Assembly (NCBI GenBank): GCA_020523885.1
Contig: JAJAPY010000016.1
Location: 10,359-74,358, forward strand
DNA length: 64,000 bases
Reading direction: 5' to 3'
Source of the DNA: Candidatus Liberimonas magnetica
Lineage (GTDB): Bacteria > Elusimicrobiota > Endomicrobiia > Endomicrobiales > JAFGIL01
Made by a program: the position numbers and the translations under genes. Positions within the stretch are counted from its first letter, which is position 1. Each line of letters begins with the position of its first letter. The notes beneath the pieces were generated by a model that did no database searches, was not told the origin of the DNA, and saw nothing but the letters and a program-made list of their open reading frames with translations. Below are positions 21,012-55,119 of this stretch, piece by piece.

Positions 21012-23195
21012 ATGAACACAGTTAAAAAGTTAGTGTTTACAGGTATTATTTTATGCTCACCAGCTGTCAGTTCTGTTTATGGCAGTTATGCTATTACGAC
21101 TTTTGCCGGAAACGGAATTGCAGGGTATTCCGGAGACGGAGGCAGTGCGGTTTCTGCTAAAATTAGCTATCCATACGGAGTAGCGGTTGATACAGCAGGG
21201 AATGTTTATATTTCCGGATGTACCGGTTCAATAAATCATCGGATAAGGAAAATAAACCCGTCAGGCATAATATCGAATTTTGCAGGGACCGGAACAGAAG
21301 ATTACTCAGGCGACGGAGGCCAGGCAACTTCCGCCAAACTTGATACTCCCAGAGGAGTAGCGGTTGATGCTACAGGGAACGTTTATATCGTGGATCAATT
21401 GAATAACCGGATAAGGAAAGTAAATACCTCAGGTATAATTTCTACTTTTGCGGGAAGCGGGACTGCCGGTTATTCTGGAGACGGGGGCCAGGCAGCTTCG
21501 GCTAAACTTAATTATCCTTTTGGAGTAGCGGCCGATGCTTCGGGGAACGTTTATATTGCCGATACAGGTAATTTTGTAATAAGGAAAGTAAACCCTTCAG
21601 GCATTATATCTACTTTTGCGGGAAACGGGACTTCAGGTTATTCCGGAGACGGAGGTAGTGCATCTTCAGCTCAACTTGTCCAGCCTGTAGGCATAGCGGC
21701 CGATGTTTCTGGGAATGTGTATATTGCGGATCAATCGGGCAATCGAATAAGGAAAGTAAATACATCTGGAAAAATATCTACCTTTGCAGGAAACGGGACA
21801 GCCGGTTATTCCGGAGATGGAGGTAGTGCTGATTCAGCTCAGCTTAACAATCCTCAGGCAGTAGCGGTTGATACTTTGGGGAACGTATATATATCTGACT
21901 ATGGAAATTATCGAATAAGGAAAGTAAACACTTCAGGCCTAATAGCTACTTTTGCAGGAAACGGGACAGCCGGTTTTTCAGGAGACGGAGGCAGTGCAAC
22001 TTCAGCTCAAGTTGACGGCCCTGTAGGAGTAGCGGTTGATGTTTCGGGGAATGTCTATATCTCTGATTATACTAATATTCGGGTAAGAAAAGTTTTTGTC
22101 AATTCTGAAACAGGAATTATTTCTGGTAAGATAACTAAATCCGATGGCACAACAGCGATTTCAGGAGTGCTTGTAGAAGTATTAGAATCCGGTGTTGTTA
22201 TATCAACTGCAACAAGCGACATAAGCGGTAATTATTCAATAACGGTCGGAATAGGTACTTATGATGTAAGGACTTCCTTGTCAGGGTATCAATCACAGTT
22301 GAAAAATGGCTATAGTGTAAGTGGCGGTTCTATTATAACCATCAATTTTTCTTTAACGGAAGCTCCTTCATCACAGACAGGCACTCTTTCCTGTACGATA
22401 ATAGCATCGGACGGTTCAGCCATTATTAATGCTTTAATAAAAATTTATCAGGGAAGCATACCTGTGAATGAAGGCTATTCTGACCCTTCGGGCAAATGCA
22501 GTTTTTCTTTAGGAGCCGGAAGTTATGATATCTCTGTTTCAAAGGCCGGCTTTCAAACAAAAGCGCAGAAAGGCCTTTCTGTTACTGCTGAACAGACAGC
22601 GTCCGCAAATTTTTCGCTTGCCCCTGCGGTTCAAGCCCGGACAGGGACCATTACGTGCAATATCCAGTGTAACGGAGCAGTTGTAGTAAATGCGGTGATA
22701 AGGATTACCCAAAACAACGATTTGATAGATGTAGAACAGACTGATTCCATAGGGACATACGGGTTTTCCCTTGCGGCAGGAATGTATGACATAAATGTAT
22801 CTAAAACCGGCTATCAGACGTCAAACCAGACAGGCGTTATCGTAAACAATAACCAGACTACAAAGGTATATATTTCACTTCTTCAGACAAGCCAGCAAAA
22901 ACCTCAGGCAGGCATGCAGACTACGCTCGGCAATAACTTGTTCAGCCCCGGTGCCGGCGGGACATGTAAAATTGTGTATAATGTGTCCCAAGCAGGCAAT
23001 GTAACTATAAAAATATGTGATTTGATGGGGAGACAGGTGAGAAGTGCAATTGATAATTCAAACTATACCGCGGGCAGCTACCAGTGGGACTGGGACGGCA
23101 AAGACGATAACGGGGAAAATGTGCCGTCCGGCATATATATTTTATATTTCAAATATCCCGGAGGCACTGAAACAAGGAAGATAGGCGTAAAATAG
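21012..23195 (+). CDS. Secreted protein: six NHL repeats, three CarboxypepD_reg-like domains, FlgD-Ig-like C-terminal domain
   Basis: Signal peptide MNTVKKLVFTGIILCSPAVSSVYG. Six repeats of GYSGDGG..A..L..P.GVAVD..GNVYI.D..N.RIRKVN. Tail contains WDWDGKDDNGENVPSGIYILYF. ATG 21012 preferred over the track start at 20991. Confidence 0.85.
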   Translation: MNTVKKLVFTGIILCSPAVSSVYGSYAITTFAGNGIAGYSGDGGSAVSAKISYPYGVAVDTAGNVYISGCTGSINHRIRKINPSGIISNFAGTGTEDYSGDGGQATSAKLDTPRGVAVDATGNVYIVDQLNNRIRKVNTSGIISTFAGSGTAGYSGDGGQAASAKLNYPFGVAADASGNVYIADTGNFVIRKVNPSGIISTFAGNGTSGYSGDGGSASSAQLVQPVGIAADVSGNVYIADQSGNRIRKVNTSGKISTFAGNGTAGYSGDGGSADSAQLNNPQAVAVDTLGNVYISDYGNYRIRKVNTSGLIATFAGNGTAGFSGDGGSATSAQVDGPVGVAVDVSGNVYISDYTNIRVRKVFVNSETGIISGKITKSDGTTAISGVLVEVLESGVVISTATSDISGNYSITVGIGTYDVRTSLSGYQSQLKNGYSVSGGSIITINFSLTEAPSSQTGTLSCTIIASDGSAIINALIKIYQGSIPVNEGYSDPSGKCSFSLGAGSYDISVSKAGFQTKAQKGLSVTAEQTASANFSLAPAVQARTGTITCNIQCNGAVVVNAVIRITQNNDLIDVEQTDSIGTYGFSLAAGMYDINVSKTGYQTSNQTGVIVNNNQTTKVYISLLQTSQQKPQAGMQTTLGNNLFSPGAGGTCKIVYNVSQAGNVTIKICDLMGRQVRSAIDNSNYTAGSYQWDWDGKDDNGENVPSGIYILYFKYPGGTETRKIGVK

Positions 23196-23228
23196 GACAA
23201 CAGACAACAGATTACAGGCAACTAAACT

Positions 23229-24581
23229 ATGACGAATATAGCAAAACGTAACTTTGTAATTATGTCTTTATTTTGTATTTTTTTTATGCAAAGTAAGTCT
23301 TTCGCGGATCAGTCTGCTGGAGTATTACTTGAATTGCCGACTTCAGCAAGGGCAGGAGGAATGGCGGAATGTTATACTGCCCTGGCTGATGACCCGTTCG
23401 GAGTTTATTATAACCCTGCAGGGATTTCGTTTATTAAAAAGCCGTCGGTTTCTTTTTTATACCAGCAGTATTTGCAGGATATAAACGGCAGTTTTGTGGC
23501 ATTGACGCTGCCGGGAAAGAATTTCAGTATAAATGCCGCGCCGGGTTTTATCTCAATGAAAGAAGAACCTGTATATGATTATTTCGGGAATGATACCGGG
23601 AGAAAATTTAAGTTCCAGGGGACCGTCATACCGCTATCAGGAGCATACAGGCTCAAAGATATTTCTTTCGGTGCAACGGTTAAATACTATAAGGAACAGT
23701 TAGATGACATAGCGAAAGACGTTACGACTTTTGATGCGGGTGTGATTTATAAGTATACAGATATCAGCTTAGGCACATCTTTGCTCAACATGAGCGGCAA
23801 ATTCGGTGATTACGACCTTCCAAAGACAATAAGATTCGGTATTGCCTATACAGTCAGTAAAATAAACATTCTTTTTGACTATAGTTCGCAGGTCACGGTT
23901 AAAAAAAATACTTACCATATAGGCGGCGAGGTGCCGGTATCCGATCATATCTTCATTAGGCTTGGCTATAAATTAAAAGATGAGTTTAGCGGCTTAAGCT
24001 ATGGTTTGGGAATTAAAATGAGCAAGTTTGATATTGATTATGCGGCTTCAAGCTACAGCGAGCTTGGATTGACACAGAGGGCGAGCCTTAACTATCATTT
24101 TGAAATAAAAAAGAAGAAAGAAAAAGCAAAAGAAAAAGTAGTAAAAAAAGATAAATATAAAGAAAAAGAACCGACCACCCCGTATATTAAAGGAGTTATT
24201 ACTGCAGCTGTCGCTGATCTGGTAGCTAGAAACGCATCTGCAGCCGAAGCCGCTTCCGCAACAGATTCTATAAGGAGCGAACTTAACTCAATTATGGAGG
24301 TCAATGTAATTGAAAAGGAAAATATGGAAATGCTCCTGGCTGAACAGAAATTTCCGATGTCAGGATGCTCAAGCCAGGAATGTGCGGTTAAAATGGGAAA
24401 GATACTTAATGCAAAAATCGTTATAATAGGTTCTTTATCAAAGCTTTCAGATACTTATTTTATTAATGCTTTGATAATAGATGTTTCAACCGGAGATATA
24501 TTACAATCCGTAGTCCAAGAAGGGATAAGCGCAACTAAGTTAAGGAACGCCTGCAAGCAGATCCTTGGAAGGATCAAATAG
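23229..24581 (+). CDS. PorV/PorQ-like outer-membrane beta-barrel fused to a CsgG/LpoB-like periplasmic domain
   Basis: Signal peptide; ARAGGMAECYTALADDPFGVYYNPAGISF motif typical of the PorV/PorQ family. K/E-rich linker, then a C-terminal domain with GCSSQECAVKMGKILNAKIVIIGSL. Confidence 0.6.
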   Translation: MTNIAKRNFVIMSLFCIFFMQSKSFADQSAGVLLELPTSARAGGMAECYTALADDPFGVYYNPAGISFIKKPSVSFLYQQYLQDINGSFVALTLPGKNFSINAAPGFISMKEEPVYDYFGNDTGRKFKFQGTVIPLSGAYRLKDISFGATVKYYKEQLDDIAKDVTTFDAGVIYKYTDISLGTSLLNMSGKFGDYDLPKTIRFGIAYTVSKINILFDYSSQVTVKKNTYHIGGEVPVSDHIFIRLGYKLKDEFSGLSYGLGIKMSKFDIDYAASSYSELGLTQRASLNYHFEIKKKKEKAKEKVVKKDKYKEKEPTTPYIKGVITAAVADLVARNASAAEAASATDSIRSELNSIMEVNVIEKENMEMLLAEQKFPMSGCSSQECAVKMGKILNAKIVIIGSLSKLSDTYFINALIIDVSTGDILQSVVQEGISATKLRNACKQILGRIK

Positions 24582-24602
24582 GAAATGAATAGAAAAATTG
24601 GC

Positions 24603-24631
24603 TTGCAAATATATTTCTAATTTAGTATTAT
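24603..24631 (+). promoter_or_regulatory. Sigma70-type promoter candidate for rimP-nusA-infB
   Basis: TTGCAA (24603-24608), 17 nt, TATTAT (24626-24631). Confidence 0.45.
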
Positions 24632-24739
24632 AAACAAAAGAGTGGCATGTACGTTAAGCCGCTCTTTAGTTTTTCTGGCCCAGTTGGCCAGATAAAGATA
24701 AGATTAGACAGATTAAAACGGAATAAAACGGCTGGATCT

Positions 24740-25201
24740 ATGAGCACGATAGAAGAGCTTGAAAAAGTTATTGCACCAGTACTTGAGACAGATAAATTTG
24801 AGCTTGTCGATATTAATTACGGAAAAGAAGGCGGCAAGAAGGTGTTGCGTGTTTTCATCGATAAAGAAGGCGGCGTAAAACTGGCAGATTGCGAGGCCGT
24901 GAGCCTCAAGATAGAAGAAGCGGTTGAAACTTCAGAGCTTATACCTGATGATTATGTAATAGAAGTGTCTTCGCCCGGGCTTGACAGGATAATAAAGAAA
25001 GAGAAAGACTTTATAAAGTTTACGGGGCAGGATGTGAAAATATCGGTTTTTGCACCGATTGACGGGCAGCGGAATTTTACAGGCAAACTGCTCTGGGCAG
25101 GCGAAGGAAAAGTCAAGATAGCCGATATATCCGGTAAGACGCTTGAGATAGAGATAGAAAAGATTGCAAGAGCCAGGTTGAACCCTGAGATAAGAATATA
25201 A
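24740..25201 (+). CDS. rimP: Ribosome maturation factor RimP
   Basis: MSTIEELEKVIAPVLE..., EVSSPGLDR motif, position before nusA. ATG 24740 preferred over the track start at 24647. Confidence 0.85.
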   Translation: MSTIEELEKVIAPVLETDKFELVDINYGKEGGKKVLRVFIDKEGGVKLADCEAVSLKIEEAVETSELIPDDYVIEVSSPGLDRIIKKEKDFIKFTGQDVKISVFAPIDGQRNFTGKLLWAGEGKVKIADISGKTLEIEIEKIARARLNPEIRI

Positions 25202-25303
25202 TGAAAAAATTAAAATGAAAAATGCAAAATTAAGGAAAGAACCAATATAATAAAAGTCTTTTAACCTTAATTTTTCAATTTGATATTTGCATTTTGCATT
25301 TGA
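25202..25303. repeat. Stutter-arm inverted repeat, TGCAAAAT dialect (simple form)
   Basis: tgaaaaaattaaaatgaaaaatgcaaaattaagg ... ataataaaagtcttttaaccttaatttttcaatttgatatttgcattttgcatttga. The track's nusA start at 25294 falls inside the right arm. Confidence 0.85.
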
Positions 25304-25323
25304 TTTTTATAGGGAGAATTAGG

Positions 25324-26682
25324 ATGCCAGAAAAAAGTGAAATGATTTTAGCTTTAGAACAAATAGAAAAAGACAAAGGAATCCCAAAGGGCGATATAAT
25401 AAAAGTCATTGAAAATGCACTTGTTTCAGCTTATAAGAAGCATGTCGGCAAAGACGTTAACGTAGAGGCCGTGGTTAACCCCGAGTCAGGGGAGATGGGA
25501 GCTGTCGTCATAAAGAAAGTTGTCTTGGAATTGAAAAACCCTTCTTTGGAAATTACCCTGGATGAAGCAAAGGCAATAAAAAGCGATATTAAGCTGGACG
25601 AAGACCTCAGGATGCCTCTTGATACGCAGGATTTTTCAAGGATCGCCGCCCAGATAGCAAAACAGGTCATTGTTCAAAAGATAAGAGAATCCGAAAGGCA
25701 AAGCCTTTTTGACGATTATAAAGGGAAAGTCGGTTTAATGGTTAACGGTGTCGTATGGCGTTTTGCGAACCGCAACATAATAGTTGACCTTGGAAAAACC
25801 GAAGCTATTTTACCTGTATCCGAACAGATAAGCAAGGAAAAATTCAATCTCGGCCAACATGTAAGGGCTATAATAGTAAAGGTAGAGAAAGGTTCAAGAG
25901 GGCCCGTAGTAGTGCTGTCAAGGAGCCATCCGGACCTTGTTAAAAGGCTTTTTGAAGTTGAAGTGCCAGAGATCTATGAAAAGATAGTCGAAATAGTAAA
26001 TGTTGTGCGCGAAAAAGGGATGAGGGCTAAAGTAGCCGTTACATCCAATAATCCGAAAGTCGACCCTGTAGGCGCTTGTGTCGGTATTAAAGGAGCAAGG
26101 GTAAAACCTATCATAGACGAGCTTTTCGGAGAACGCATAGACCTTATACCCTTTTCGAACGACCCGGAAAGATATATCGCATCATCTCTTTCACCTGCAA
26201 AAGTTACGCGGGTTAACCTGATATCAAAAGAAGCAAAAAAGGCGGAGGTTATAGTAAACGATGAAATGCTCTCTCTTGCCATCGGAAAGAGCGGGCATAA
26301 TGTCCGACTTGCCGCAAAATTGGTAGGATGGCACATCGATATCCGCTCAGAATCCCAGAAAAAGAAGGAAACAGAACAGAATAATACCGTGGTAAGCGAG
26401 AATCTAAGCAAACTTAAAGGCGTAGGGCAAAAAACCGTTGAAGTCTTAACGAAAGCAGGTTTTATTGACATCAATAAACTTGCCAATGCAAAAATAGATG
26501 ACTTAACGACTTTACAAGGCATCGGAGAAAAAACCGCCAAGAAAATAATAGACTCAGCAAAGGAATTAATTAACACGAAACTTCAGGAGGCAAAAGAAAC
26601 AGAAACAAAAGCAACGGAAACAGACGAAGCCCCTGCAGCAAAGCCTAAAACAAAAGAAAAATCATCAAAAAAGGAAGAGTAA
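25324..26682 (+). CDS. nusA: Transcription termination/antitermination factor NusA
   Basis: NusA N-terminal domain, S1, two KH domains (GACVGIKGARV, AIGKSGHNVRLA), C-terminal HhH region. Confidence 0.95.
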   Translation: MPEKSEMILALEQIEKDKGIPKGDIIKVIENALVSAYKKHVGKDVNVEAVVNPESGEMGAVVIKKVVLELKNPSLEITLDEAKAIKSDIKLDEDLRMPLDTQDFSRIAAQIAKQVIVQKIRESERQSLFDDYKGKVGLMVNGVVWRFANRNIIVDLGKTEAILPVSEQISKEKFNLGQHVRAIIVKVEKGSRGPVVVLSRSHPDLVKRLFEVEVPEIYEKIVEIVNVVREKGMRAKVAVTSNNPKVDPVGACVGIKGARVKPIIDELFGERIDLIPFSNDPERYIASSLSPAKVTRVNLISKEAKKAEVIVNDEMLSLAIGKSGHNVRLAAKLVGWHIDIRSESQKKKETEQNNTVVSENLSKLKGVGQKTVEVLTKAGFIDINKLANAKIDDLTTLQGIGEKTAKKIIDSAKELINTKLQEAKETETKATETDEAPAAKPKTKEKSSKKEE

Positions 26683-26705
26683 TCGTGTTTAAAGAGGATT
26701 AAAAT

Positions 26706-28886: not shown

Positions 28887-28890
28887 AGAG

Positions 28891-28927
28891 ATTGCAAATT
28901 GCAAAATGAAAATTGCAAAATGAAGAT
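28891..28927. repeat. TGCAAAAT-dialect left arm only
   Basis: attgcaaattgcaaaatgaaaattgcaaaatgaagat. I saw no matching right arm before rbfA. Confidence 0.6.
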
Positions 28928-28971
28928 TATATACAGCAAACCAACAAAAAAACTAATTACAGTAGGGATAT

Positions 28972-29406: not shown

Positions 29407-29431
29407 TCCCTAAATAGACTGAAAAAAGAAA

Positions 29432-44855: not shown

Positions 44856-45737
44856 ATGGATGCTTATCTTAAAGATTTTGTTTCATATATAGAGGCAGAA
44901 AAGGGCTTGAGCAAGAACACCGTCCTTGCATACACTTCAGACTTAAAACACTACTTCAAATACCTTGATAAAATAAAAAAGCCTCTATTGAATCTTGAAC
45001 ACCAGGACCTGACCGAATTTCTCTGGCAGAAGAAACTGGAGGGGTTAAAACCGCGTTCGTTAAGCCGCCTCATAGAAACATTGAGGCAGTTCCACAGGTT
45101 CCTTATAATCGAAGGATATACGTCAAATGACCCGACTCTAGACCTATTGGCCCCTCGCATCCCGGCAAAGCTTCCCAATATGCTTACTAACGAAGAAGTA
45201 GAGCGCCTCCTTTTTACTATATCCGGAGAAAAGGAGCGCCAGATAAGGAACAGGGCTATGGTAGAGCTTATGTATGCCTCAGGTTTAAGGGTATCTGAAC
45301 TTGTCAATCTGACCGCAGAAAACCTTGATCTTAGCCTCGGGTTTGTGAAGGTATTTGGAAAGGGAAATAAAGAAAGGATAGTCCCTGTAGGTAAAACAGC
45401 GCTAAAGTTTCTGGCGAAATACCTTGAATTAAGGAATAAAAACCCCAGAAACCAGGGAAAACACGAATTGTTTTTGACTAAATTAGGCACCAAAATGTCC
45501 AGGATAGAATTCTGGCGCCAGCTTAAAAACCACGCAAAAAAAGCCGGAATTACAAAGAATATGACGCCGCACGTCCTGCGCCATTCTTTTGCCTCTCACA
45601 TGCTTGCCCACGGTGCGGACCTGAGGTTCGTACAGGAGATGCTGGGCCACAGCTCAATTGCAACCACGCAGATATACACTCATGTCGACAAAGAAAGGTT
45701 AAAAGAACTCCACAAAAAATACCATCCCAGAGGTTGA
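44856..45737 (+). CDS. xerD: Tyrosine recombinase XerD/XerC type
   Basis: N-terminal SAM-like domain (EKGLSKNTVLAYTSDL). Catalytic residues in ASGLRVSEL, HVLRHSFASH, LGHSSIATTQIYTHV. Confidence 0.75.
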   Translation: MDAYLKDFVSYIEAEKGLSKNTVLAYTSDLKHYFKYLDKIKKPLLNLEHQDLTEFLWQKKLEGLKPRSLSRLIETLRQFHRFLIIEGYTSNDPTLDLLAPRIPAKLPNMLTNEEVERLLFTISGEKERQIRNRAMVELMYASGLRVSELVNLTAENLDLSLGFVKVFGKGNKERIVPVGKTALKFLAKYLELRNKNPRNQGKHELFLTKLGTKMSRIEFWRQLKNHAKKAGITKNMTPHVLRHSFASHMLAHGADLRFVQEMLGHSSIATTQIYTHVDKERLKELHKKYHPRG

Positions 45738-45779
45738 TCCTGAAATTTAGCGGCAAGTAAGAATTAAAAGTTAAAAATT

Positions 45780-45788
45780 TGATATAAT
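45780..45788 (+). promoter_or_regulatory. Extended -10 promoter candidate placed so the transcript would be nearly leaderless
   Basis: TGaTATAAT ends 6 nt before the ATG at 45795. No SD lies between them. Confidence 0.35.
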
Positions 45789-45794
45789 CATTTT

Positions 45795-46022
45795 ATGAAA
45801 ACAGTTGGAAAAAGATCGGAAAACCAGATAGATTTTCATGCTTCCGCAGAAAAACTTAAAACCGGGGCGCTGTTTAATGATGAGATGCAAAAACTTGCGC
45901 TTACATACGGTGGTTTTTTTAAGAAAGGTGTTTACAGGTACAAAACGCATGAAGATGCAAATAAACATTGGGAAGACAGCCTGGTAAAAAATGTTGCAAG
46001 GAAAAACATTAATGGAAAATGA
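45795..46022 (+). CDS. Small hypothetical protein, possible antitoxin-like partner of the downstream nucleotidyltransferase
   Basis: 75 aa. Overlaps the next ORF by 11 nt. The opposite-strand 102-aa ORF is F/C/K-rich and looks spurious. Confidence 0.4.
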   Translation: MKTVGKRSENQIDFHASAEKLKTGALFNDEMQKLALTYGGFFKKGVYRYKTHEDANKHWEDSLVKNVARKNINGK

Positions 46023-46494
46023 TGTTTCAAGGCCGGCTACATTGGATGATTTAAAAAAACTTGTTGAGGCTTTAAACAAGGAGAATGCAGATTATATCCT
46101 TATAGGCGGTTACGCCCTTTATGCCCATGGTTTGTATCGGACAACGACAGATATAGATATATTAGTCCCGCCTAATGAGGAATCAGGAAAAAAAGTCATA
46201 AATGCGCTTCTTGTTTTACCCGATAGAGCAGCCCGTGATATAGATGTTTCGTGGTTCGAAGAAAAAGATACAATAAGGTTGGCTGATGAAATTGTTGTAG
46301 ATATAATGTTTAATGCTGCAGGCGAAACATATGAATCTTTAAAAAAATACATGGAAGTTATAAAGATAGACGGCATCCCTGTTAAAACTATCAATCTTGA
46401 AGGCCTCTTGCTTACCAAAAATACTTTCCGTGAAAAGGATCTTACGGATAAAAAACTCCTAAAAAGCATTTTAAACGAAATAAACAAGTCATAA
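46012..46494 (+). CDS. Minimal nucleotidyltransferase-fold protein (DUF6036/AbiEii-like)
   Basis: The pol-beta-type NTase pattern (hG[GS]..., then DhDh) is seen as LIGGYALYAHGLYRTTTDIDILV. Confidence 0.55.
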   Translation: MENDVSRPATLDDLKKLVEALNKENADYILIGGYALYAHGLYRTTTDIDILVPPNEESGKKVINALLVLPDRAARDIDVSWFEEKDTIRLADEIVVDIMFNAAGETYESLKKYMEVIKIDGIPVKTINLEGLLLTKNTFREKDLTDKKLLKSILNEINKS

Positions 46495-46505
46495 ACAGAG
46501 AACAA

Positions 46506-49463
46506 ATGACTATAATTAAAAAAATAATATTCATAGGTATTATTTTACGTACGATATCTGCCAGCTCTGTTTTCGGCCAGGATGTCATTACTACTTTTGC
46601 CGGAACCGGAACTTACGGTTATTCAGGCGACGGAGGGTTGGCCGCTTCAGCCAGGCTATATAATCCTAAAGGAGTAGCGGTTGATAATAATTCGGGAGTT
46701 GTTTATATCTGTGATAGTAATAATCATCGAATACGGAAAGTAAACGCTTCGGGAATAATATCAACTTTTGCCGGAACGGGAACAGCCGGTTTTTCAGGAG
46801 ACGGCAGCCTTGCAACTTCAGCTGAACTTGATACACCTTATGGAGTAGCGGTTGACACTTCAGGGAATGTCTATATCTCTGACCAGGGTAACAACCGGAT
46901 ACGGAAAGTAAACACTTCAAGCACAATAGCAACTTTTGCCGGAGGCGGGACCGGTGGTTTAGGCGACGGCGGCCCTGCAACCTCCGCCCAACTTAATAGT
47001 CCTTACGGAGTAGCGGTTGATTCTTCAGGGAATGTCTATATCTCTGACCAGGGTAACAACCGGATACGGAAAGTAAACACTTCAGGCACAATAGCAACTT
47101 TTGCCGGAGGCGGGACCGGCGGTTTAGGCGACGGCGGCCCTGCAGTCTTAGCTCAACTTAATAACCCTTATGGAGTAACGGTTGACACTCAAGGGAGTGT
47201 CTATATCTCTGATTATACTAATAATTTAATCAGGAAAGTAAACGCTTCAGGCACAATAGCAACTTTTGCCGGAGGCGGGGTCGGCGGTTTAGGCGACGGC
47301 GGCCCTGCAACTTCAGCCCGGCTCACAAATCCCAGTGGTATAGCGGTTGATGATTTAGGGAATGTTTATATTTCTTCCTTTATTGATTTTCGAATACGGA
47401 AAGTGGACACTTCAGGAATAATATCAACTTTTGCGGGGACTGGAATTGCAGGTGATTCAGGCGACGGAGGGAAAGCTACGTTAGCTCAGATAAGTAATTC
47501 TTACGGAGTAGCTGTCGATACTTCAGGGCATGTTTATATCTCTGACTATAACAGTCATCGAATAAGGAAAGTTATTTTGGGGCGCGGGGCTATTGCAGGG
47601 CAGGTATTAGATTCTTATGGAAAAACAGCGGTTTCGGGAGTGCTCATAGAAATATTGCAGTCGGGTGTGCTTAAATCAAGTACGACAAGCGATACGTTCG
47701 GAAATTATGCAGTCAAAGTTGATACCGGGGTTTATAATGTGCGGGCTTCTTTGACAGGCTACCAACCTCAGACTAAAAACGGGTATAATGTAAAAACTAG
47801 TTCGACTGTAACGGTAAATTTTTCCCTTGCACGGATCATCGGCGTTATTTCCGGAAAAGTAACAAAATCGGACGGAACAACGGCGGTTTCAGGAGCGCTC
47901 GTAGAAGCAATGCAATCCGGAGTAACAAAAGCAAGCATTAATACGAATACAAGCGGCAATTACTCAATGAAAATAACTCCGGGGACGTATGATGTAAGAG
48001 TGTCTTCTACAGGTTATGAGCCCCAGCTTAAAACAGGTTATACCGTAGCCGATGGTTCAACTGCCACAGTAAATTTTTCTCTTCTGCAGATCCCAGGTGT
48101 TATTTCAGGCAAAGTGACAAAATCAGACGGAACAACACCTGTCCCAGGAGCCCTTATAGAAATATTACAGTCCGGCGCAGTTAAAGCAAGCGCAACAAGC
48201 GATATAAGCGGCAATTATTCTATAACAACAGATGTGGGAACCTATAATGTAAAGGCATCTAAAACAGGATACCTGTCCCAGACAAAAACCGGGTATGACG
48301 TGACAACCGGTTCGACAAAAACCGTTGATTTTTTGCTTGTCGAGCTTTCTGCAGCTAAAACAGGCGTCATTTCAGGTAAAGTTACACGGTCAAATGGCAC
48401 AACTCCTGTCTCCGGAGCGATGGTAGAAGCGTTAATTTCAGGAATAACAAAAGCAAATGCAACAACAGATGCAAGCGGCAATTATTCTATAAGAGCAGGG
48501 ACGGGGACATATAATGTAAAGGCATCTAAAGCAGGGTACATGTCACAGACAAAAACCGGATACTATGTGGCAGACGGTTCGACAAAAACCGTTAATTTTT
48601 CGCTTGTCGAGCTTGCGGCAGCCAAAACCGGGGTTATTTCAGGGAACGTGACACGGTCGGACGGCATAACACCTGCTTCCGGAGCGGTAGTAGAAGCATT
48701 AATTTCCGGAATAACAAAAGCAAATGTAACAACAGATCTGTACGGCAATTATTCTATAACAGTAGGGACGGGGGCCTATGACGTAAAGGCATCTAAAGGC
48801 GGGTACCTGTCTCAAACAAAAACAGGGTATGACGTGACAACAGGATCGACAAAAACCGTTAATTTTTCGCTTGTAGAGCTTTCAGGGGGCAGCTATGGCG
48901 AAATTGCCGGAAGAGTGACAAAATCCGACGGAGTGACACCTGTTTTTGGTGCGGTAATTGAGGTATTTGAGGCAGGCGTGGAAAGATCAAATGCGATGAC
49001 CGATATAGACGGTTATTATTACCTGGCGGTATCGACAGGGATTTATGATATAAAAGCTTCTATTACAGGATTTCAATCTCAGACAAAAACCTTTTATGCG
49101 CTGGACAGCGCGTCGTTAGTTACTGTAGATTTTTCTTTAGTTGAGGAAATACAGGAAAAACAGGAGATACCTCACGACGACAAAGTGATCGCTCTCGGAG
49201 ATAACTTGTTTAATCCGAGGGCGGGCGGGACATGCAAGGTATGGTTTAACCTTTCACAACCGGGCGATGTAACGATAAAAGTGTATGATTTTATGGGCTC
49301 TCAGGTAAGAACCGGCCTGGACAATGCAAACCATGCTTCGGGGATATCCCAGTGGAACTGGGACGGTAAAGATAATGACGGGAAAATCGTCCCGCCCGGC
49401 ATCTATATTCTGTATTTTAAATACCCGGGTGGAATTATAAAAAGAAAAATAGGCGTAAAATGA
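46506..49463 (+). CDS. Secreted protein: six NHL repeats, six CarboxypepD_reg-like domains, FlgD-Ig-like C-terminal domain (paralog of 21012-23195)
   Basis: Signal peptide, six ...VYIS.. NHL blades, six GVISGKVT.SDGTT.VSGA.VE... domains. The tail WNWDGKDNDGKIVPPGIYILYFKYPGG is nearly the same as the paralog's. Confidence 0.85.
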   Translation: MTIIKKIIFIGIILRTISASSVFGQDVITTFAGTGTYGYSGDGGLAASARLYNPKGVAVDNNSGVVYICDSNNHRIRKVNASGIISTFAGTGTAGFSGDGSLATSAELDTPYGVAVDTSGNVYISDQGNNRIRKVNTSSTIATFAGGGTGGLGDGGPATSAQLNSPYGVAVDSSGNVYISDQGNNRIRKVNTSGTIATFAGGGTGGLGDGGPAVLAQLNNPYGVTVDTQGSVYISDYTNNLIRKVNASGTIATFAGGGVGGLGDGGPATSARLTNPSGIAVDDLGNVYISSFIDFRIRKVDTSGIISTFAGTGIAGDSGDGGKATLAQISNSYGVAVDTSGHVYISDYNSHRIRKVILGRGAIAGQVLDSYGKTAVSGVLIEILQSGVLKSSTTSDTFGNYAVKVDTGVYNVRASLTGYQPQTKNGYNVKTSSTVTVNFSLARIIGVISGKVTKSDGTTAVSGALVEAMQSGVTKASINTNTSGNYSMKITPGTYDVRVSSTGYEPQLKTGYTVADGSTATVNFSLLQIPGVISGKVTKSDGTTPVPGALIEILQSGAVKASATSDISGNYSITTDVGTYNVKASKTGYLSQTKTGYDVTTGSTKTVDFLLVELSAAKTGVISGKVTRSNGTTPVSGAMVEALISGITKANATTDASGNYSIRAGTGTYNVKASKAGYMSQTKTGYYVADGSTKTVNFSLVELAAAKTGVISGNVTRSDGITPASGAVVEALISGITKANVTTDLYGNYSITVGTGAYDVKASKGGYLSQTKTGYDVTTGSTKTVNFSLVELSGGSYGEIAGRVTKSDGVTPVFGAVIEVFEAGVERSNAMTDIDGYYYLAVSTGIYDIKASITGFQSQTKTFYALDSASLVTVDFSLVEEIQEKQEIPHDDKVIALGDNLFNPRAGGTCKVWFNLSQPGDVTIKVYDFMGSQVRTGLDNANHASGISQWNWDGKDNDGKIVPPGIYILYFKYPGGIIKRKIGVK
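46836..47165 (+). repeat. Intragenic tandem repeat, 2 x 165 bp (one NHL blade each)
   Basis: The copies start at 46836 and 47001. By eye I count about a dozen mismatches, including one run of 62 identical nt. A third, more diverged copy follows. Confidence 0.85.
48336..48869 (+). repeat. Intragenic tandem repeat, 2 x 267 bp (one CarboxypepD_reg-like domain each)
   Basis: Units begin with cttgtcgagctt at 48336 and 48603; the next unit starts at 48870. The encoded units, LVEL(S/A)AAKTGVISG..., are highly similar. Confidence 0.8.
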
Positions 49464-49519
49464 GACAACACAACAAGACACAAGACACAAGACTATACTA
49501 TATTGCTTAGGAATTATGG

Positions 49520-50845
49520 ATGAACATAGCAAAACGTAACTTAGTAATTATATTTTTATTTTGTATTTTATTCATGCAAAGTAAGTTGTTCGCGGACCAG
49601 CCTGCCGGGGTGTTCCTTGGGCTGCCTGTATCAGCAAGGGCAGGGGGAATGGCTGATTGTTTTACCGCTTTGGCTGATGACCCGTTCGGCGCATATTATA
49701 ACCCGGCCGGAATATCGTTTATTAGATATCCTGCAGCTTCTTTTTCATACCAGGAGTACTTAGTAGATACAAACGGTACTTTTGCGGCAATAGCTGTTCC
49801 GGGAAGGAATTTCAGTATGAGTATCGCACCCGGATTTGTTACGATGCAAGAAGAACCTATATATGATTCCTTGTGGAATGATACAGGAAAGAAATTCAAG
49901 TTCCAGGCAACGATAGTCCCAGTATCAGGTGCATACAGGATTGGAGGCTTTTCTTTAGGGGCTTCGGCTAAATACTATAAAGAAGAGATAGCTGATGAAG
50001 CGCAAGACGTTTCAACGTTTGATGCCGGCATAATTTATAAGTTTAAAAACATAAGTTTTGGCGCATCCTGGCTTAACATGAACGGTAAATTGTGGGATTA
50101 TGACCTTCCGGGTACGATAAAATACGGTGCCGCCTGCAAGATCATGAAAACAAACCTTCTTTTTGATTACAATTCTCAAATTAATATAAGGAAGGATTCT
50201 TATAATTTGGGCGGAGAGGTTGCGCTGTATGAAGCTTTGTTTATAAGGTTCGGGTATAAGTTAAAAGACGAGTTTGGCGGGTTAAGCTATGGTTTAGGCA
50301 TTAAGATCGGCAAATTTGATATTGATTATGCATCTTCAAACTACAGCGAGCTTGGAGTGACCCAGAGAGTAGCCTTGAACTGTCGTTTTAGCGGTGAAAA
50401 GGCGGAAGAGCCTGTAAAAAGAAAGGAAGAGAAGGTCAGCCGTGTTAAAAAACTGGAAAAAGGCTCAAGGATAGCCGTCTGCGAATTTAAGGCTGAAAAC
50501 ACTTCTCAAGCCAGTGTTTCGATGCTAAGACGTGCCATATTTAACGAACTTAGTTCGAACAGGAAGTTCGAAACGCTTAGCAAGGAAAATATGGAAACGG
50601 CCCTTACCAAAAAGGGGTTTAAATCGACAGGGTGCACAAACGATGAATGTGCAGTTAGAATGGGAAAGGCCCTTAAAGTAAAAGTTGTCTTAACAGGTTC
50701 ATTATCAAAGACTGAGGATACTTATCACATTAAAATTTCATTGGTAGAGGTCAAAACCGGAGAGGTTATGCAGTCCATTGCCCAGGATGCGACCTTGGCC
50801 ACGTTATTACAGGCCTGCAAGCAAATCGTTGAAAGAATAGAATAG
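49520..50845 (+). CDS. PorV/PorQ-like outer-membrane beta-barrel fused to a CsgG/LpoB-like periplasmic domain (paralog of 23229-24581)
   Basis: ARAGGMADCFTALADDPFGAYYNPAGISF. C-terminal domain with GCTNDECAVRMGKALKVKVVLTGSL. The 5' ~170 nt are very similar to the paralog at the DNA level. Confidence 0.6.
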   Translation: MNIAKRNLVIIFLFCILFMQSKLFADQPAGVFLGLPVSARAGGMADCFTALADDPFGAYYNPAGISFIRYPAASFSYQEYLVDTNGTFAAIAVPGRNFSMSIAPGFVTMQEEPIYDSLWNDTGKKFKFQATIVPVSGAYRIGGFSLGASAKYYKEEIADEAQDVSTFDAGIIYKFKNISFGASWLNMNGKLWDYDLPGTIKYGAACKIMKTNLLFDYNSQINIRKDSYNLGGEVALYEALFIRFGYKLKDEFGGLSYGLGIKIGKFDIDYASSNYSELGVTQRVALNCRFSGEKAEEPVKRKEEKVSRVKKLEKGSRIAVCEFKAENTSQASVSMLRRAIFNELSSNRKFETLSKENMETALTKKGFKSTGCTNDECAVRMGKALKVKVVLTGSLSKTEDTYHIKISLVEVKTGEVMQSIAQDATLATLLQACKQIVERIE

Positions 50846-50880
50846 CTGTATGTCCTGTTTGAAATCAATTTAAAAAAGCC

Positions 50881-50991
50881 GTCATTCCTGCCCCCGATTT
50901 AGGGCATTCGAGGGTAAACTCCAGCAGGAATCCAGAGAAGTTGTTTGTCGTCGATATTCCTGGATTCCCGCTAAAGGCATGCAGGAATGAC
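50881..50991. repeat. Nested inverted repeat with GTCATT...AATGAC termini (REP/MITE-like)
   Basis: Outer pair GTCATTCCTGC / GCAGGAATGAC. Inner pair GCAGGAATCCAG / CCTGGATTCCCGC. Confidence 0.75.
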
Positions 50992-51033
50992 AAAATATGT
51001 TGGAGAGTAGTGAAAATATAATAAAATAAAATG

Positions 51034-51062
51034 TTGATTTTTGTGCGTAAAATAGATAAAAT
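51034..51062 (+). promoter_or_regulatory. Sigma70-type promoter candidate for the 51126 gene
   Basis: TTGATT (51034-51039), 17 nt, TAAAAT (51057-51062). Confidence 0.35.
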
Positions 51063-51125
51063 AACGTCAGTCAATGCATTGAAAAACTCCGTTTTTTTAA
51101 CGGAAATCATAGCCGGGGAGTTGTT

Positions 51126-52757
51126 ATGAAAAAAATTATATTTTTATCAGCTGTTATCTGTATAAATTGTTCCTTTGTTTATGCCGCCTTATCTCAAAAG
51201 ATTAATTTTCAGGGCCAGCTGACAAATTCAAACGGCAGCCCTGTGACAGGTACCGTTTCCATGACTTTCAATATCCATGACGCCTTGACGGGAGGGAATA
51301 CCCTAAAAACCATAACTAATTCAAGCGTTTCATTTAATGAAAACGGATTGTATAACGTTGAGCTGGATTTAACGGGTTTAAACTTAAACCAGGATATGTG
51401 GCTCGGCATTAAGGTGGGCTCGGATTCCGAGATGACGCCCAGGGTCCCCATACTTCCTTCCGCATCTTCAATTTTTTCAATAACGGCCCAGAGCGCTCAG
51501 GCTTCCCAGGATAGCAGCCAGTTGGGAGGCATAAGCGCTAATTCTTACTTCTTAAAATCAGGCGGCACGCTAACAGGCCAGATAAACATGGGAAATTTCT
51601 CTATACTTACATCGAGCTCTATCGTAGGGATAACAAAGATAAAATGGGCTGACGGGTCTACAAGCACCCATGCGGCGTCATGCAGCGGCGCCGACATGAC
51701 AAAAGCGACTTATGATGTTAACTCAAACAATAGCGTTGACGATTCAGAGAGGCTGGGCGGAGCATTGCCTTCCATATATTTAACTAAAGCTGTTGCCACC
51801 ACTACTTACTTGCCCTTATCTGTTGCCGCGACTACATATTTGAAATTAGCTGTAGCTAATACAGCTTATATGAAATTATCCGGAGGCACTCTTGGCGGCA
51901 AATTGAACATGAGCAATTTTTCTGTTATTTCTTCCAGTTCCATAGAAGGCATATCAAAGATAAGATGGGCAGACGGGTCTGTAAGTACCCATGCAGCCTC
52001 GATGAGCAGTGCTGATATGACAAAGTCCACCTATGATACAGATACAGATAATATAGTTGACAATTCAGAAAGGCTTGGCGGCAGCCTGCCTTCCCTATAT
52101 TTAACTAAAGCTGTTGCCACTACTACTTACCTGCCTTTAGCTGTTGCATCCACTACGTATTTGAGATTGTCTGTTGCCAATACCACTTATATGAAATTAT
52201 CCGGCGGGACGTTTAGCGGTGACATAACTTCATCGCAAAACAGATTGCAAATATCTACTAATGTGTATACAGTCGGCTATTCCTCAGCTGCCGCATTTTA
52301 CGGAGACGGCTCAAACCTCAGCCTGGGCAGGTCATACGGAGAGATGTTTGCAACTGCTTCTGCGGATCTTAGTGACGTAACCGTTGCCGGCACTTATTTG
52401 AAAGCAGCCACTGTTACTACAGCTGGTGATCTTAAGAATTTCACCCATTCATCAGGAAGGTTGACTTATACTGGAACAAAAACAAAGATATTTAAATGCA
52501 GCGTTTCTTTAACCTCGGCAGTAGCCGCAGGCACACACCTGACAGGTTATAAGATCTATAAAAATGGGGCGCCAATTGCAAAGAGCGAAATATTATCTGT
52601 AACTGGAACAACAGCAATTAATAGATCGGATGTTAATCTTGGATGTCTCGCCCAATTAAACCAAAATGATTTCCTTGAACTTTGGCTTACAACCACTGAT
52701 GCAATTATAGATGTGACAGTATCCTATTTGAATTTTAGTTTAACAGAGGTGCAATAG
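51126..52757 (+). CDS. Secreted tail-fibre-like repeat protein with a possible jelly-roll (C1q/TNF-like) C-terminal head
   Basis: Signal peptide. The N-terminal INFQGQLTNSNGSPVTG domain is a type common in bacterial fibre proteins. Two 107-aa repeats contain ERLGG.LPS.YLTK and YMKLSGGT..G motifs reminiscent of phage tail fibres. Confidence 0.55.
   Translation: MKKIIFLSAVICINCSFVYAALSQKINFQGQLTNSNGSPVTGTVSMTFNIHDALTGGNTLKTITNSSVSFNENGLYNVELDLTGLNLNQDMWLGIKVGSDSEMTPRVPILPSASSIFSITAQSAQASQDSSQLGGISANSYFLKSGGTLTGQINMGNFSILTSSSIVGITKIKWADGSTSTHAASCSGADMTKATYDVNSNNSVDDSERLGGALPSIYLTKAVATTTYLPLSVAATTYLKLAVANTAYMKLSGGTLGGKLNMSNFSVISSSSIEGISKIRWADGSVSTHAASMSSADMTKSTYDTDTDNIVDNSERLGGSLPSLYLTKAVATTTYLPLAVASTTYLRLSVANTTYMKLSGGTFSGDITSSQNRLQISTNVYTVGYSSAAAFYGDGSNLSLGRSYGEMFATASADLSDVTVAGTYLKAATVTTAGDLKNFTHSSGRLTYTGTKTKIFKCSVSLTSAVAAGTHLTGYKIYKNGAPIAKSEILSVTGTTAINRSDVNLGCLAQLNQNDFLELWLTTTDAIIDVTVSYLNFSLTEVQ
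51558..52199 (+). repeat. Intragenic tandem repeat, 2 x 321 bp
   Basis: The units start with tc(a/c)gg(c/a)ggcac at 51558 and 51879, and a third unit begins at 52200. They encode SGGTL.G..NM.NFS...SSSI.GI.KI.WADGS.STHAAS... Confidence 0.8.
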
Positions 52758-52782
52758 GAGCATAAATATTTTTTAAAATAAA

Positions 52783-53349
52783 ATGAAAATAAAAAACTGT
52801 TATAAATTTATTTTATTGTTTCTCTATGGTTTTCTGTTTTTTTATTCCAAATGCCTGGCGGCAAGCGCGAGCGCTAACTATACGCTTGTCAATTACAGCT
52901 TGAATTCAAGCGCGGCAGCGGGGCTTTCCTCTGAAAATAACAAAGCGAAGGCGGCGATAGGGCAGAACATAGTTGTCTTAAGCGAAAGCCCGCTTTATAA
53001 GTCCCTGCCGGGCTACATCTCCGGGATTACGGCTACTGCGCTGACCTTTGCCTCGGATACCCTGGACAACGTTTACGTTTACCCTAACCCTTATAAGCCA
53101 AGCTCACAGGGAAGCATTTATCAGGCCCAGTACCTGACGTTTAAAAACCTTCCCCAGAGAGCTACAATAAAAATTTTCAGCCTCTCGGGTGAGTTGATAG
53201 CCGCGCTTGAAAAAGATTCAAGCTTGAACCAGTGCCAGTGGGTTCCGAAAAATGATGCCGGGAACCGGTTGTCGAGCGGTTTATATTTTTATTACATTAC
53301 AGATGGCCAGGGAAGAAAATCAAAAGGCAAATTTACCGTAATACGCTAA
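52783..53349 (+). CDS. Small secreted protein with an FlgD-Ig / T9SS-sorting-like C-terminal domain
   Basis: Signal peptide. C-terminal VYVYPNPYKP...ATIKIFSLSGELIA...SSGLYFYYITDGQGRKSKGKFTVIR. Confidence 0.55.
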   Translation: MKIKNCYKFILLFLYGFLFFYSKCLAASASANYTLVNYSLNSSAAAGLSSENNKAKAAIGQNIVVLSESPLYKSLPGYISGITATALTFASDTLDNVYVYPNPYKPSSQGSIYQAQYLTFKNLPQRATIKIFSLSGELIAALEKDSSLNQCQWVPKNDAGNRLSSGLYFYYITDGQGRKSKGKFTVIR

Positions 53350-53364
53350 AAAACGAAACGCTGT

Positions 53365-55119
53365 ATGAAGAATAAATCCGGAATTATCCTTGTTTTATGG
53401 TTTGCGCTTGCAGGTTTTGCTTCTATTTCAAAAGCGGCTCTATTTTCCAGGGATGACGCAGGGACTACTTCGGCACAGTTTTTAAAACTCGGGACAGGCG
53501 CAAGGCCTGTTGCCATGGGCGAGGCCTTCACCGGCCTGGCAGACGACATAAATGCGATATACTGGAACCCTGCAGGCCTGACAAACATAAATAATAGGGA
53601 AATTACAGCAATGAGGGCTCAGTGGTTCGAAGACGTTTCTTTCAACTGGGCAGCCTATACTCAGCCTGCCTTTGGCGGCAGTCTCGGGTTAGGGTTGTTT
53701 TATCTCGGGTCAGGTGATATAAAAAAATACGACAATACAGGTAAGGCAAGAAACGAGTCTTACAGCGGTTTTGACTCTGCTTTAAGCGTTTCCTACGCAA
53801 GGCAGTCGCTCTCTATACCGCTCGGCATTACAGTGAAGTTCCTGAATTCAAAACTGGAGGAGGAGTCTGCCTCTGGCATTGCTGCGGATATAGGGTTGCT
53901 TAAGACGCTATCCAAAGCAAAAGATATTATTTTCGGCCTTGCCCTGCAAAACATAGGGACAGGTTTAAAGTATGTCCAGGATAACTCACCGCTTCCTTTG
54001 ACGTTGAGGGCAGGCGTTTCGTTTAAACAGCTCAACAAAAAACTCCTTCTTGTTTCAGACCTGAACTTTCCCGTTGATAATGAAATAAATGCACACCTGG
54101 GAGCCGAATACAAACAGAATTTTGGCGCGTTTGACCTGTTCCCCAGAGTAGGTTTTAAGACAAATACGGTCCGCTCTAGGGATGTTTTGTCCGGGGTTTC
54201 CGGAGGCTTCGGCATTTCTTATAACGATATAAGCGTAAACTACGCCTGGGTCCCGTATTGGGAGCTGGGAGCTACCCAGAGGGTTGACATCGGGTTTAAG
54301 TTCAGCGAAACAAAAAAGAAAATAAAAATAGACTATTCCTCATATTCATCGCAGTATGCCTGTGTTGATTGTGTTAACATAGCAGCTCAAAACATCCACT
54401 TCGATTTCGGCAATTATAGCGTCAAAGAAATAGAAATGCCGATCCTGGATACCGTAGCCGCTCTGATATTCAAATACGACCCTTACAAAGTGCGCATTTC
54501 AGGGCATTCTGACACCGTGGAGGATAAAGCTTTTGGCAAAGATATCTCTTTTATGAGAGCGAATTTTGTTATGAAGTATTTAGTTGAAAGAGGCGTTCCG
54601 CAGGACAAGATTTATGCGGCAGGCTACGGGAGTGATTTACCCGTAGAACCTAACGACGCCGAAGCGGGGCGAAGCAAAAACAGGCGGGTAGAGTTTTTAA
54701 TAACCGATAATAAAGGCGGAGAAGAATTAAAGTTTTCACTTTATGCTTCTTTAAAGGAAAAAGAAGAACTTATAAACATGGATTTAAAGCTTGGCCAGAG
54801 CCTATTTGCAGAAGATAACTATGATAAAGCTATAGAGGAATTTAAAAAAGTTTTACAGCTTGACCCTGACAATACCGAGGCCAAAGAGTATATAAGGAAG
54901 GCCGAAGACATGAAAATCGGCAAAAAGAGCGTAACGGCTGATAATATAGATAAAAAGATAACCAGGATGCGCGGGTATTTTCAGAATGGGCAGGAGTTAT
55001 TTAAAAAAGGAAAATACAGGAAATCAATTAAAGAATTTGAAAAGGTTTTAAAAATAGACCCTATGCATGTCAAATCTATGAGATATATCTTGCGTGCCAC
55101 AGAAGAGATTAATAAATAG
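53365..55119 (+). CDS. PorV/PorQ-like beta-barrel fused to an OmpA C-terminal domain and TPR repeats
   Basis: GARPVAMGEAFTGLADDINAIYWNPAGL motif. OmpA-like RISGHSD...NRRVEFLI peptidoglycan-binding domain. C-terminal TPR-like repeats. Confidence 0.7.
   Translation: MKNKSGIILVLWFALAGFASISKAALFSRDDAGTTSAQFLKLGTGARPVAMGEAFTGLADDINAIYWNPAGLTNINNREITAMRAQWFEDVSFNWAAYTQPAFGGSLGLGLFYLGSGDIKKYDNTGKARNESYSGFDSALSVSYARQSLSIPLGITVKFLNSKLEEESASGIAADIGLLKTLSKAKDIIFGLALQNIGTGLKYVQDNSPLPLTLRAGVSFKQLNKKLLLVSDLNFPVDNEINAHLGAEYKQNFGAFDLFPRVGFKTNTVRSRDVLSGVSGGFGISYNDISVNYAWVPYWELGATQRVDIGFKFSETKKKIKIDYSSYSSQYACVDCVNIAAQNIHFDFGNYSVKEIEMPILDTVAALIFKYDPYKVRISGHSDTVEDKAFGKDISFMRANFVMKYLVERGVPQDKIYAAGYGSDLPVEPNDAEAGRSKNRRVEFLITDNKGGEELKFSLYASLKEKEELINMDLKLGQSLFAEDNYDKAIEEFKKVLQLDPDNTEAKEYIRKAEDMKIGKKSVTADNIDKKITRMRGYFQNGQELFKKGKYRKSIKEFEKVLKIDPMHVKSMRYILRATEEINK

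Follow-up and report, generated by a model that had tools for sequence, protein, structure and literature searches.

The stretch of 64,000 nucleotides analysed here (the window, positions 1-64000) comes from Candidatus Liberimonas magnetica DUR002, a member of the Elusimicrobiota. It holds three modules in which a gene for a secreted protein with a C-terminal domain (CTD) of the type known from type IX secretion systems (T9SS) is followed by a gene for an outer-membrane barrel of the PorV/PorQ family. In 3/3 cases the barrel gene lies 15-56 bp downstream of the tail gene, as the initial annotation of the window had proposed. Our results show that this one-tail/one-barrel unit is conserved, ordered and often translationally coupled across the Elusimicrobiota, and that the gene pairs duplicate as units. 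We favour the reading that each module is a cognate anchor pair with its cargo on the cell surface, and give it somewhat less than an even chance.

The seven module genes are found on the forward strand where the initial annotation had placed them, and signal-peptide-like N-termini are present in 7/7 of their products. Cargo 1 (21012-23195) combines a signal peptide and an NHL beta-propeller with three CarboxypepD_reg domains and ends in a CTD tail (Pfam: TEN_NHL 2.5e-54, CarboxypepD_reg 5.6e-31, and FlgD_ig). Its mechanically delimited open reading frame (ORF) spans 20991-23195 with a TTG start at 20991, while the previously chosen ATG at 21012 yields a clean signal peptide. Cargo 2 (46506-49463) is a paralogue of cargo 1 that has six CarboxypepD_reg domains besides the NHL propeller, and its CTD tail also matches FlgD_ig; the domain composition that had been read for both cargos, including the end resembling the FlgD immunoglobulin-like (Ig) domain, is thus upheld by Pfam. 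The third tail-bearing protein, of only 188 amino acids (aa; 52783-53349), has a signal peptide and a short N-terminal part ahead of its tail.

All three tails pass TIGR04183, the model of the T9SS type-A C-terminal sorting domain (cutoff 23 bits), and end 1-2 residues ahead of the stop codon, which agrees with the earlier comparison to the CTDs of T9SS cargo and with the claim that the small protein of the third cluster has a related tail. The tail of cargo 1 (aa 651-733, 22941-23189), of the T9SS type-A or FlgD-Ig type, scores 26.0 bits against TIGR04183, 33.3 bits against FlgD_ig and 99.8 bits against our in-house tail hidden Markov model (HMM). The tail of cargo 2 (aa 902-984, 49209-49457) reaches 24.6 bits against TIGR04183 and is 64% identical to that of cargo 1. 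For the 188-aa protein (tail at aa 104-186, 53092-53340) the score is 29.6 bits, and its top NCBIfam match is the CTD end of PorZ (NF052228 positions 664-752, 7e-15). The in-house HMM, iterated from the three tails, matches only 3 ORFs in the 64 kb, namely cargo 1, cargo 2 and the 188-aa protein, and the tail stands at the extreme C-terminus in 54/60 of its matches. A PEP-CTERM/ScyF identity for the cargo was considered and rejected, as those NCBIfam matches are confined to the NHL domain.

The barrels are genuine homologues of PorV, and an HMM of the barrel finds these three alone in the 64 kb. In barrel 1 (23229-24581), the PorV/PorQ-family barrel spans aa 33-291 and is joined by a disordered Lys/Glu-rich linker to an LpoB/CsgG-like domain at aa ~320-450. 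The paralogue of barrel 1, barrel 2 (49520-50845), which is 56% identical over the full length and 64% over the barrel domain, likewise ends in an LpoB-like domain after a linker of this kind. Barrel 3 (53365-55119) has the PorV/PorQ-family barrel at aa 34-313, followed by an OmpA peptidoglycan-binding domain (aa 346-440) and tetratricopeptide repeats (TPR, aa ~456-584). The initial annotation had recognized the three barrels and missed these additional domains. Against the PorV/PorQ family model NF033709 the barrels score 111.1, 88.2 and 157.9 bits, which puts barrels 1 and 3 above the curated cutoff of 90 bits and barrel 2 just under it. The equivalog cutoffs are reached by none of them, neither that of PorV (NF033710, cutoff 250; 32.6, 26.0 and 60.4 bits) nor that of PorQ (NF033711, cutoff 220; 71.4, 55.8 and 113.6 bits), so the assignment to PorV/PorQ stands for the family and not for the equivalogs. 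The motif AR..GM....TA.ADD....YYNPAG, which had been read in the barrels, is exact in barrels 1 and 2 and takes the variant form AR..AM....TG.ADD....YWNPAG in barrel 3.

A profile built from 59 family members matches PorV of Flavobacterium johnsoniae (6H3I chain F) at E=1.4e-35, with FadL (~1e-3) and TodX far weaker. The fold was tested for barrel 1 only, where the AlphaFold2 model has a mean predicted local distance difference test score (pLDDT) of 89.7 and the top Foldseek matches are PorV from the translocon structures with bound substrate (8gl6_F 1.4e-13) and in the apo state (6h3i_F 2.7e-12), followed by FadL, TbuX and TodX. The place of FadL, TodX and TbuX as the next best sequence and fold matches after PorV would suit a FadL-type uptake channel, in which the barrel transports hydrophobic compounds and the neighbouring protein captures or processes the substrate. 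However, the profile is far closer to PorV than to FadL, the partner bodies are unrelated (NHL, Kelch, protease, fibre adaptor) and share the tail alone, and nothing in the examined neighbourhoods suggests a catabolic pathway. We therefore regard an uptake function as very improbable. The PorP/SprF model TIGR03519 (cutoff 90.55) is not reached either, with 18.7 bits for barrel 1 and no match at E<=0.01 for barrels 2 and 3. Two-partner secretion through a TpsB/Omp85 protein was rejected on the lack of any Omp85 or POTRA family match, CdiB appearing only at Foldseek rank 16 with a template-modelling (TM) score of 0.30.

In the profile alignment the barrel family appears as a trimmed PorV, from which 64 PorV residues (256-319) and several smaller loop insertions are missing. 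What the barrels have in addition is found at their C-termini. In barrels 1 and 2 this is a domain of ~130 aa with weak matches to CsgG, LpoB, DUF3280 and TolB_N, and in the model of barrel 1 its fold is close to the LpoB C-terminal domain (4q6z, TM 0.68 by Foldseek). Judging from this model, the similarity to the LpoB C-terminal domain is confined to the fold. An assignment to the CsgG channel or to LpoB itself was rejected, since the match to CsgG covers no more than profile positions 32-101 out of 210 and the LpoB scores of 18.5-20.5 bits fall below the cutoff of 22.3. Three cysteines of this domain (C380, C385 and C442) are invariant in the family alignment. In barrel 3 the extension is identified by Pfam through OmpA (1.4e-14) and TPR matches. 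These extensions are periplasmic domain types, and each barrel would therefore be linked to periplasmic partners or to the cell wall. In a Desantisbacteria metagenome-assembled genome (MAG; L054 4905-10227 and L051 7471-9266), separate adjoining genes encode a barrel of 353 aa and an LpoB-like domain of 232 aa; they are placed after the tail gene and before a thioredoxin-like gene. This splitting of the domains favours a joint function of the two parts.

Species-representative genomes were scanned with the barrel alignment, which gave 78 loci, most of them in Elusimicrobiota and some few in Firestonebacteria, Desantisbacteria and unclassified MAGs. In these loci the in-house HMMs identify 37 tail genes followed directly by a barrel gene on the same strand and ~8 more with one small ORF in between, so the adjacency recurs in related genomes as had been anticipated. 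The gene order is always tail to barrel. Among 38 non-redundant pairs the two genes overlap by 4 bp in 14/38, and the gap is no longer than 60 bp in 32/38. While the tail is the constant part, the cargo bodies vary from 190 to 2155 aa and include NHL, Kelch, fn3, CARDB, Laminin_G_3 and peptidase M6 domains. The same tail-barrel order was seen from precomputed Pfam labels in three independently fetched loci (L002, L163 and L165). Barrel homologues are found almost exclusively in Elusimicrobiota MAGs, and ~100 clusters (50% identity) match barrel 1 at E<=1e-30, although part of these matches are restricted to the barrel or to the LpoB-like domain. The DUR002 MAG itself has at least five PorV-like barrels, of which at least two (P0001 and P0002) lie beyond the window on other contigs, P0001 with a tail gene upstream.

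As a control, metagenome contigs were scanned with the tail alignment and without selection for barrels, and genes with a C-terminal tail and at least 1.2 kb of downstream sequence were retained (n=68). A PorV-like barrel lies downstream in only 2/68 of these FlgD-Ig-tailed genes, and the better of the two barrels is of the Elusimicrobiota type with an LpoB-like domain. Therefore, the pairing belongs to this barrel lineage and not to FlgD-Ig tails in general. Some contigs from the tail scan (L093 2-6225, L117 2690-6228 and L104) carry two to four FlgD-Ig-tailed genes in tandem and no PorV-like barrel in the vicinity, an arrangement opposite to that of the Elusimicrobiota modules.

The initial annotation had called a one-cargo/one-receptor arrangement undescribed, which is too strong, as CTD proteins held by dedicated barrels are already known in principle. 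In the canonical T9SS, substrates bind the extracellular loops of PorV inside the SprA translocon. In Porphyromonas gingivalis, PorU and PorZ retain their CTDs and are anchored to the surface through PorV and PorQ, respectively. The modules would resemble these pairs in that a PorV/PorQ-family barrel holds a protein with an uncleaved Ig-like CTD at the outer membrane, the binding being predicted in our case. The genes porU (PG0026) and porV (PG0027) also adjoin each other in the order CTD gene to barrel gene, as in the modules. With PorZ-PorQ the likeness extends to sequence, in that the tail of the 188-aa protein best matches the PorZ CTD and PorQ is the best equivalog for barrel 3. The modules differ from both pairs in number and content, with at least five pairs per genome and varied cargo that is not part of a secretion machinery. 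Their barrels are shorter than PorV, are without its loop insertions, stay below the equivalog cutoffs and have additional periplasmic LpoB-like or OmpA-TPR domains, and their host belongs to a phylum for which no T9SS has been reported.

A second parallel is found in type-B CTD substrates, which leave on alternative carriers that also anchor them. The genes of type-B CTD cargo and of PorP/SprF-like barrels typically lie side by side. PG1035-PorP-PorE and SprB-SprF form anchor complexes of a cargo with its cognate barrel in which, as proposed for the modules, one cargo has one dedicated anchoring barrel independent of PorU and PorV. PorE supplies TPR and OmpA wall binding to its complex, whereas barrel 3 has both domains in the same polypeptide. 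In contrast to the type-B systems, the module barrels belong to the PorV/PorQ and not to the PorP/SprF family and the module tails fit the type-A model, while type-B systems still need the SprA translocon. PorV of the F. johnsoniae SprA translocon (6H3I/8GL6) binds CTDs and is the best match of the barrels in both sequence and structure. However, a single PorV serves all type-A substrates inside SprA, whereas the modules have one barrel gene per cargo, and the module barrels lack segment 256-319 and the other loop insertions of PorV and carry an extra periplasmic domain. The module barrels also match Pfam UPF0164 (barrel 3 at 27.1 bits, cutoff 21.4), which links them to the UPF0164/FadL-like proteins of Treponema with C-terminal TPR. 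In T. pallidum, a FadL-like barrel followed by periplasmic TPR helices has been described, and we know of no CTD-tailed partner gene for the Treponema UPF0164 proteins.

By analogy with these systems, the modules look like the known CTD-barrel anchoring multiplied, with a PorE-like wall-binding function fused to the barrel, and we therefore favour surface-exposed cognate anchor pairs. The tail-bearing protein would be exported by Sec, as the signal-peptide-like N-termini of the module proteins suggest, and the PorV/PorQ-family barrel of the next gene downstream would hold its Ig-like CTD without a covalent bond, as PorV does with PorU, PorQ with PorZ and PorP/SprF with type-B CTD proteins. The barrel, a trimmed PorV, would fix the complex to the wall or to periplasmic partners through its LpoB/CsgG-like or OmpA and TPR domains. 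The most likely end state would be cargo exposed on the cell surface, and the domain types of the cargo are indeed typical of extracellular proteins, as is the TNF/C1q-like head of the fibre protein described below. The outer membrane could be crossed through the barrel itself, through the PilQ secretin that has been reported for DUR002, or through an undetected translocon.

Several points weigh against anchoring on the surface. Physical binding of tail and barrel, one-to-one specificity and surface location are predicted, as is the secretion of all members. The related loci were gathered via the barrel, and the fraction of tails found with a barrel is thus biased upward. Divergence of tails and barrels is correlated (r=0.85, a value reached by 0/2000 Mantel permutations), but this is also expected from co-inheritance of neighbouring genes, and because co-inheritance explains it we read the correlation only as co-duplication of the pair and not as evidence of binding. 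Since T9SS substrates bind extracellular loops of PorV, the loss of 256-319 and the other loop insertions from the barrels means that the binding mode may differ. Finally, cargo-type domains occur on the periplasmic side of some related barrels, which leaves room for a periplasmic location. Of the self-contained surface-display module put forward initially, display and self-containment are putative, while the conserved pair itself stands.

These periplasmic cargo-type domains would fit an arrangement in which the cargo stays inside the outer membrane and its tail attaches to the barrel from the periplasmic side or to the LpoB-like or OmpA-TPR domain, thus building outer-membrane-anchored periplasmic assemblies without any translocon. 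P0056 is a natural fusion of a barrel, two CarboxypepD_reg domains and an LpoB-like domain, and P0099 and P0070 join a PorV-like barrel, FlgD_ig-like Ig repeats and OmpA. In P0018 (L014 9388-11070), an insert of ~125 aa (residues 299-423) lies between barrel and LpoB-like domain; it occurs in variants of 560-600 aa, has no Pfam name and is 45-55% identical to tandem repeats in the tail-bearing P0115, P0117, P0111 and P0121. Kelch propellers are also found fused to the LpoB-like domain, as P0139-P0153 comprise Kelch, IPT or PEGA proteins that end in this domain and not in a CTD tail. A periplasmic location of the cargo further agrees with the domain types of the barrel C-termini (OmpA, LpoB fold and TPR), with the T9SS not being reported for Elusimicrobiota, and with the thioredoxin-like gene that directly follows 18/51 barrels. 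However, large cargo proteins (up to 2155 aa) with adhesin-like domains are typical of the cell exterior, and so are peptidase M6 and a fibre with a TNF/C1q head; in the homologous T9SS it is the extracellular loops of PorV that bind the CTD. The Ig repeats of the fusion proteins also resemble the tail only weakly, with at most 16 bits compared to 64-100 bits for true tails. We regard retention of the cargo in the periplasm as unlikely, but as a real rival.

The thioredoxin-like genes of the related loci encode a protein of ~445 aa with an N-terminal AhpC/TSA thioredoxin-like domain, and in 8/51 cases a DUF1573 Ig-domain protein of ~490 aa follows as well (loci L004 11353-12633, L020 11295-14086, L044 8247-11296 and L165 6525-7949). 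Neither gene is present in the modules of the window. Considered alongside the invariant cysteines in the LpoB-like domain, these downstream genes hint at a disulfide-handling step.

If the cargo does reach the surface, the export machinery could still be a canonical T9SS encoded elsewhere in the genome. SprA/Sov, PorKLMN and PorU would then carry out the export, and the barrels would be specialised carriers or anchors. This is exactly how dedicated barrels work in Bacteroidota, where PorP/SprF serve type-B CTD proteins, and it would suit the tails and the barrels, which pass the models of the type-A CTD and of the PorV/PorQ family, respectively. Within the window, neither the module proteins nor 10 less obvious proteins nor 10 housekeeping proteins matched any T9SS core family, the other ORFs being judged by sequence reading, and SprA and PorU are not encoded there because the largest ORF, of 985 aa, is too short for either. 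This agrees with the initial annotation, which had seen no T9SS core gene in the 64 kb, but the scan was limited to the window out of a 3.4-Mb genome. Published surveys point away from a T9SS in this phylum. TXSScan found T9SS only in Bacteroidetes and zero known secretion systems in Elusimicrobium minutum and TG1 Rs-D17, and a 2024 review reports T9SS genes to be absent outside the phyla of the Fibrobacterota-Chlorobiota-Bacteroidota (FCB) group. The authors of the DUR002 genome list it among Elusimicrobiota "lacking the Gld system", which may mean GldAFG only, and report type IV pilus genes including PilQ. In the open-access literature we found no paper on tail-barrel pairing or on T9SS parts in Elusimicrobiota, nor any linking Elusimicrobia with T9SS. 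Considering also that the PorV loop insertions are missing from the barrels, we find it quite unlikely that the modules are accessories of a complete T9SS. A search with an Elusimicrobiaceae barrel returned MAG proteins alone, none of them tied to Elusimicrobium minutum.

At the other extreme, the tail-barrel pair might be a self-sufficient device for outer-membrane export and anchoring that needs no T9SS, which we consider distinctly improbable. Here, a trimmed, PorV-like barrel of the FadL family, tied to the wall, would let the protein of its neighbour gene out and hold it by the Ig-like tail. If true, this would represent a minimal or ancestral form of the T9SS carrier and attachment step, and would explain surface display in a phylum where known secretion systems went undetected.

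Cognate anchoring on the surface would involve an additional component in the third module, which begins with a fibre protein without CTD (51126-52757). This protein has a signal peptide, an N-terminal beta-sandwich (aa 25-110), a repeat shaft and a C-terminal head (aa ~425-543). It was described as fibre-like in the initial annotation, and no Pfam, NCBIfam, PHROG or PDB sequence match was found for it, nor a tandem repeat in its DNA. The AlphaFold2 model is poor overall (pLDDT 47.9), with a confident N-terminal beta-sandwich and a shaft that is unfolded as a monomer, and only the fold match of the head domain is usable. By Foldseek, the predicted head resembles TNF/C1q-like trimeric heads at ~1e-5, including those of 4-1BBL, Cbln1, Bacillus BclA, ExsF/BxpB and BC2L-C. 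On this model, the protein fits a trimeric surface fibre.

The fibre gene, the small tail gene and the barrel gene form a conserved three-gene unit that is seen in two other contexts. In an Endomicrobiales MAG (L029), homologues of the fibre (36%, 3e-25), the tail protein (193 aa, 39%) and the barrel (43%) are consecutive with 3-bp gaps. In a JGI contig (L163), the unit lies beside an ATP synthase operon and comprises a pair of fibre paralogues, an FlgD_ig protein of 189 aa and a barrel-OmpA-TPR protein of 583 aa. The 188-aa protein is a candidate adaptor between fibre and barrel, whose tail would couple the trimeric TNF/C1q-headed fibre to barrel 3.

What is new compared to the known systems is a PorV-family barrel dedicated to one type-A-like cargo, the fusion of a periplasmic domain to such a barrel, the multiplication of tail-barrel pairs within a genome, and their presence in a phylum not known to have T9SS. 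The NCBI pipeline already names these proteins. Two hallmarks of T9SS, the CTD signal and the PorV-like carrier, thus occur outside Bacteroidota/FCB as multiplied one-to-one pairs with a built-in wall anchor. If these genomes truly have no translocon, the carrier and attachment half of T9SS could work, or could once have worked, without SprA, which bears on the evolution of T9SS, and Elusimicrobiota and neighbouring candidate phyla would have an unrecognised route for surface proteins. Even in the presence of a T9SS, the modules would broaden the PorP/SprF principle to type-A-like tails with dedicated anchors of the PorV family. In addition, the pairs offer a compact and testable system for tail-barrel recognition, as the paralogous pairs 1 and 2 can be compared with pair 3 within one genome.

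The fibre protein is identical to MCB4792412.1 (LHV68_11100) of DUR002, the MAG of a magnetotactic Elusimicrobiota bacterium from bog soil (3.4 Mb, 94.4% complete, GC 39.8%). The window is core chromosome, with a GC content of ~0.41, a GC skew above zero in all but one 2-kb segment, and all ORFs judged real on the forward strand. Family searches identified housekeeping flanks (Rnf, uppS, cdsA, dxr and rseP) and further flanking genes for FtsK, LolA, RodZ, a radical-SAM methylthiotransferase and a MoxR/BatA cluster. The window also includes what we take, from sequence reading alone, to be the rimP-nusA-infB region. No tRNA genes or Rfam family matches were found in window 1-64000, and promoter and terminator scans of the window stayed at background level and did not indicate operon limits.

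A cluster of the Bat/aerotolerance type (MoxR AAA ATPase, DUF58, BatA/VWA, DUF4159 and GATase1-like; 55245-62644) begins 125 bp past barrel 3. Its link with the fibre module is probably incidental, because the homologous fibre module of L163 adjoins the ATP synthase operon. Directly upstream of cargo 2 (44856-46494) are genes for a XerD-like recombinase, assigned by sequence reading, and a DUF6036/AbiEii-like nucleotidyltransferase. This pair could mark the insertion point of modules 2 and 3, and there is no GC shift there. Directly upstream of cargo 1 (17667-20978) lie a carbamoyltransferase-like gene and a PMT_2 family glycosyltransferase gene, 12 bp ahead of the start of the TTG ORF. A carbamoyltransferase 69% identical to that of the window is found upstream of the two modules of another locus (L041 504-2279), and several related modules are located among glycosyltransferase, flippase and epimerase genes (L001 and L002). 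These sugar-related neighbours may point to a link with glycosylation of the cargo or the envelope. Within modules 1 and 2, the spacers between cargo and barrel (23196-23228 and 49464-49519) both open with CA-rich repeats right after the stop codon, GACAACAGACAACAGA... and GACAACACAACAAGACACAAGACACAAGAC..., respectively.

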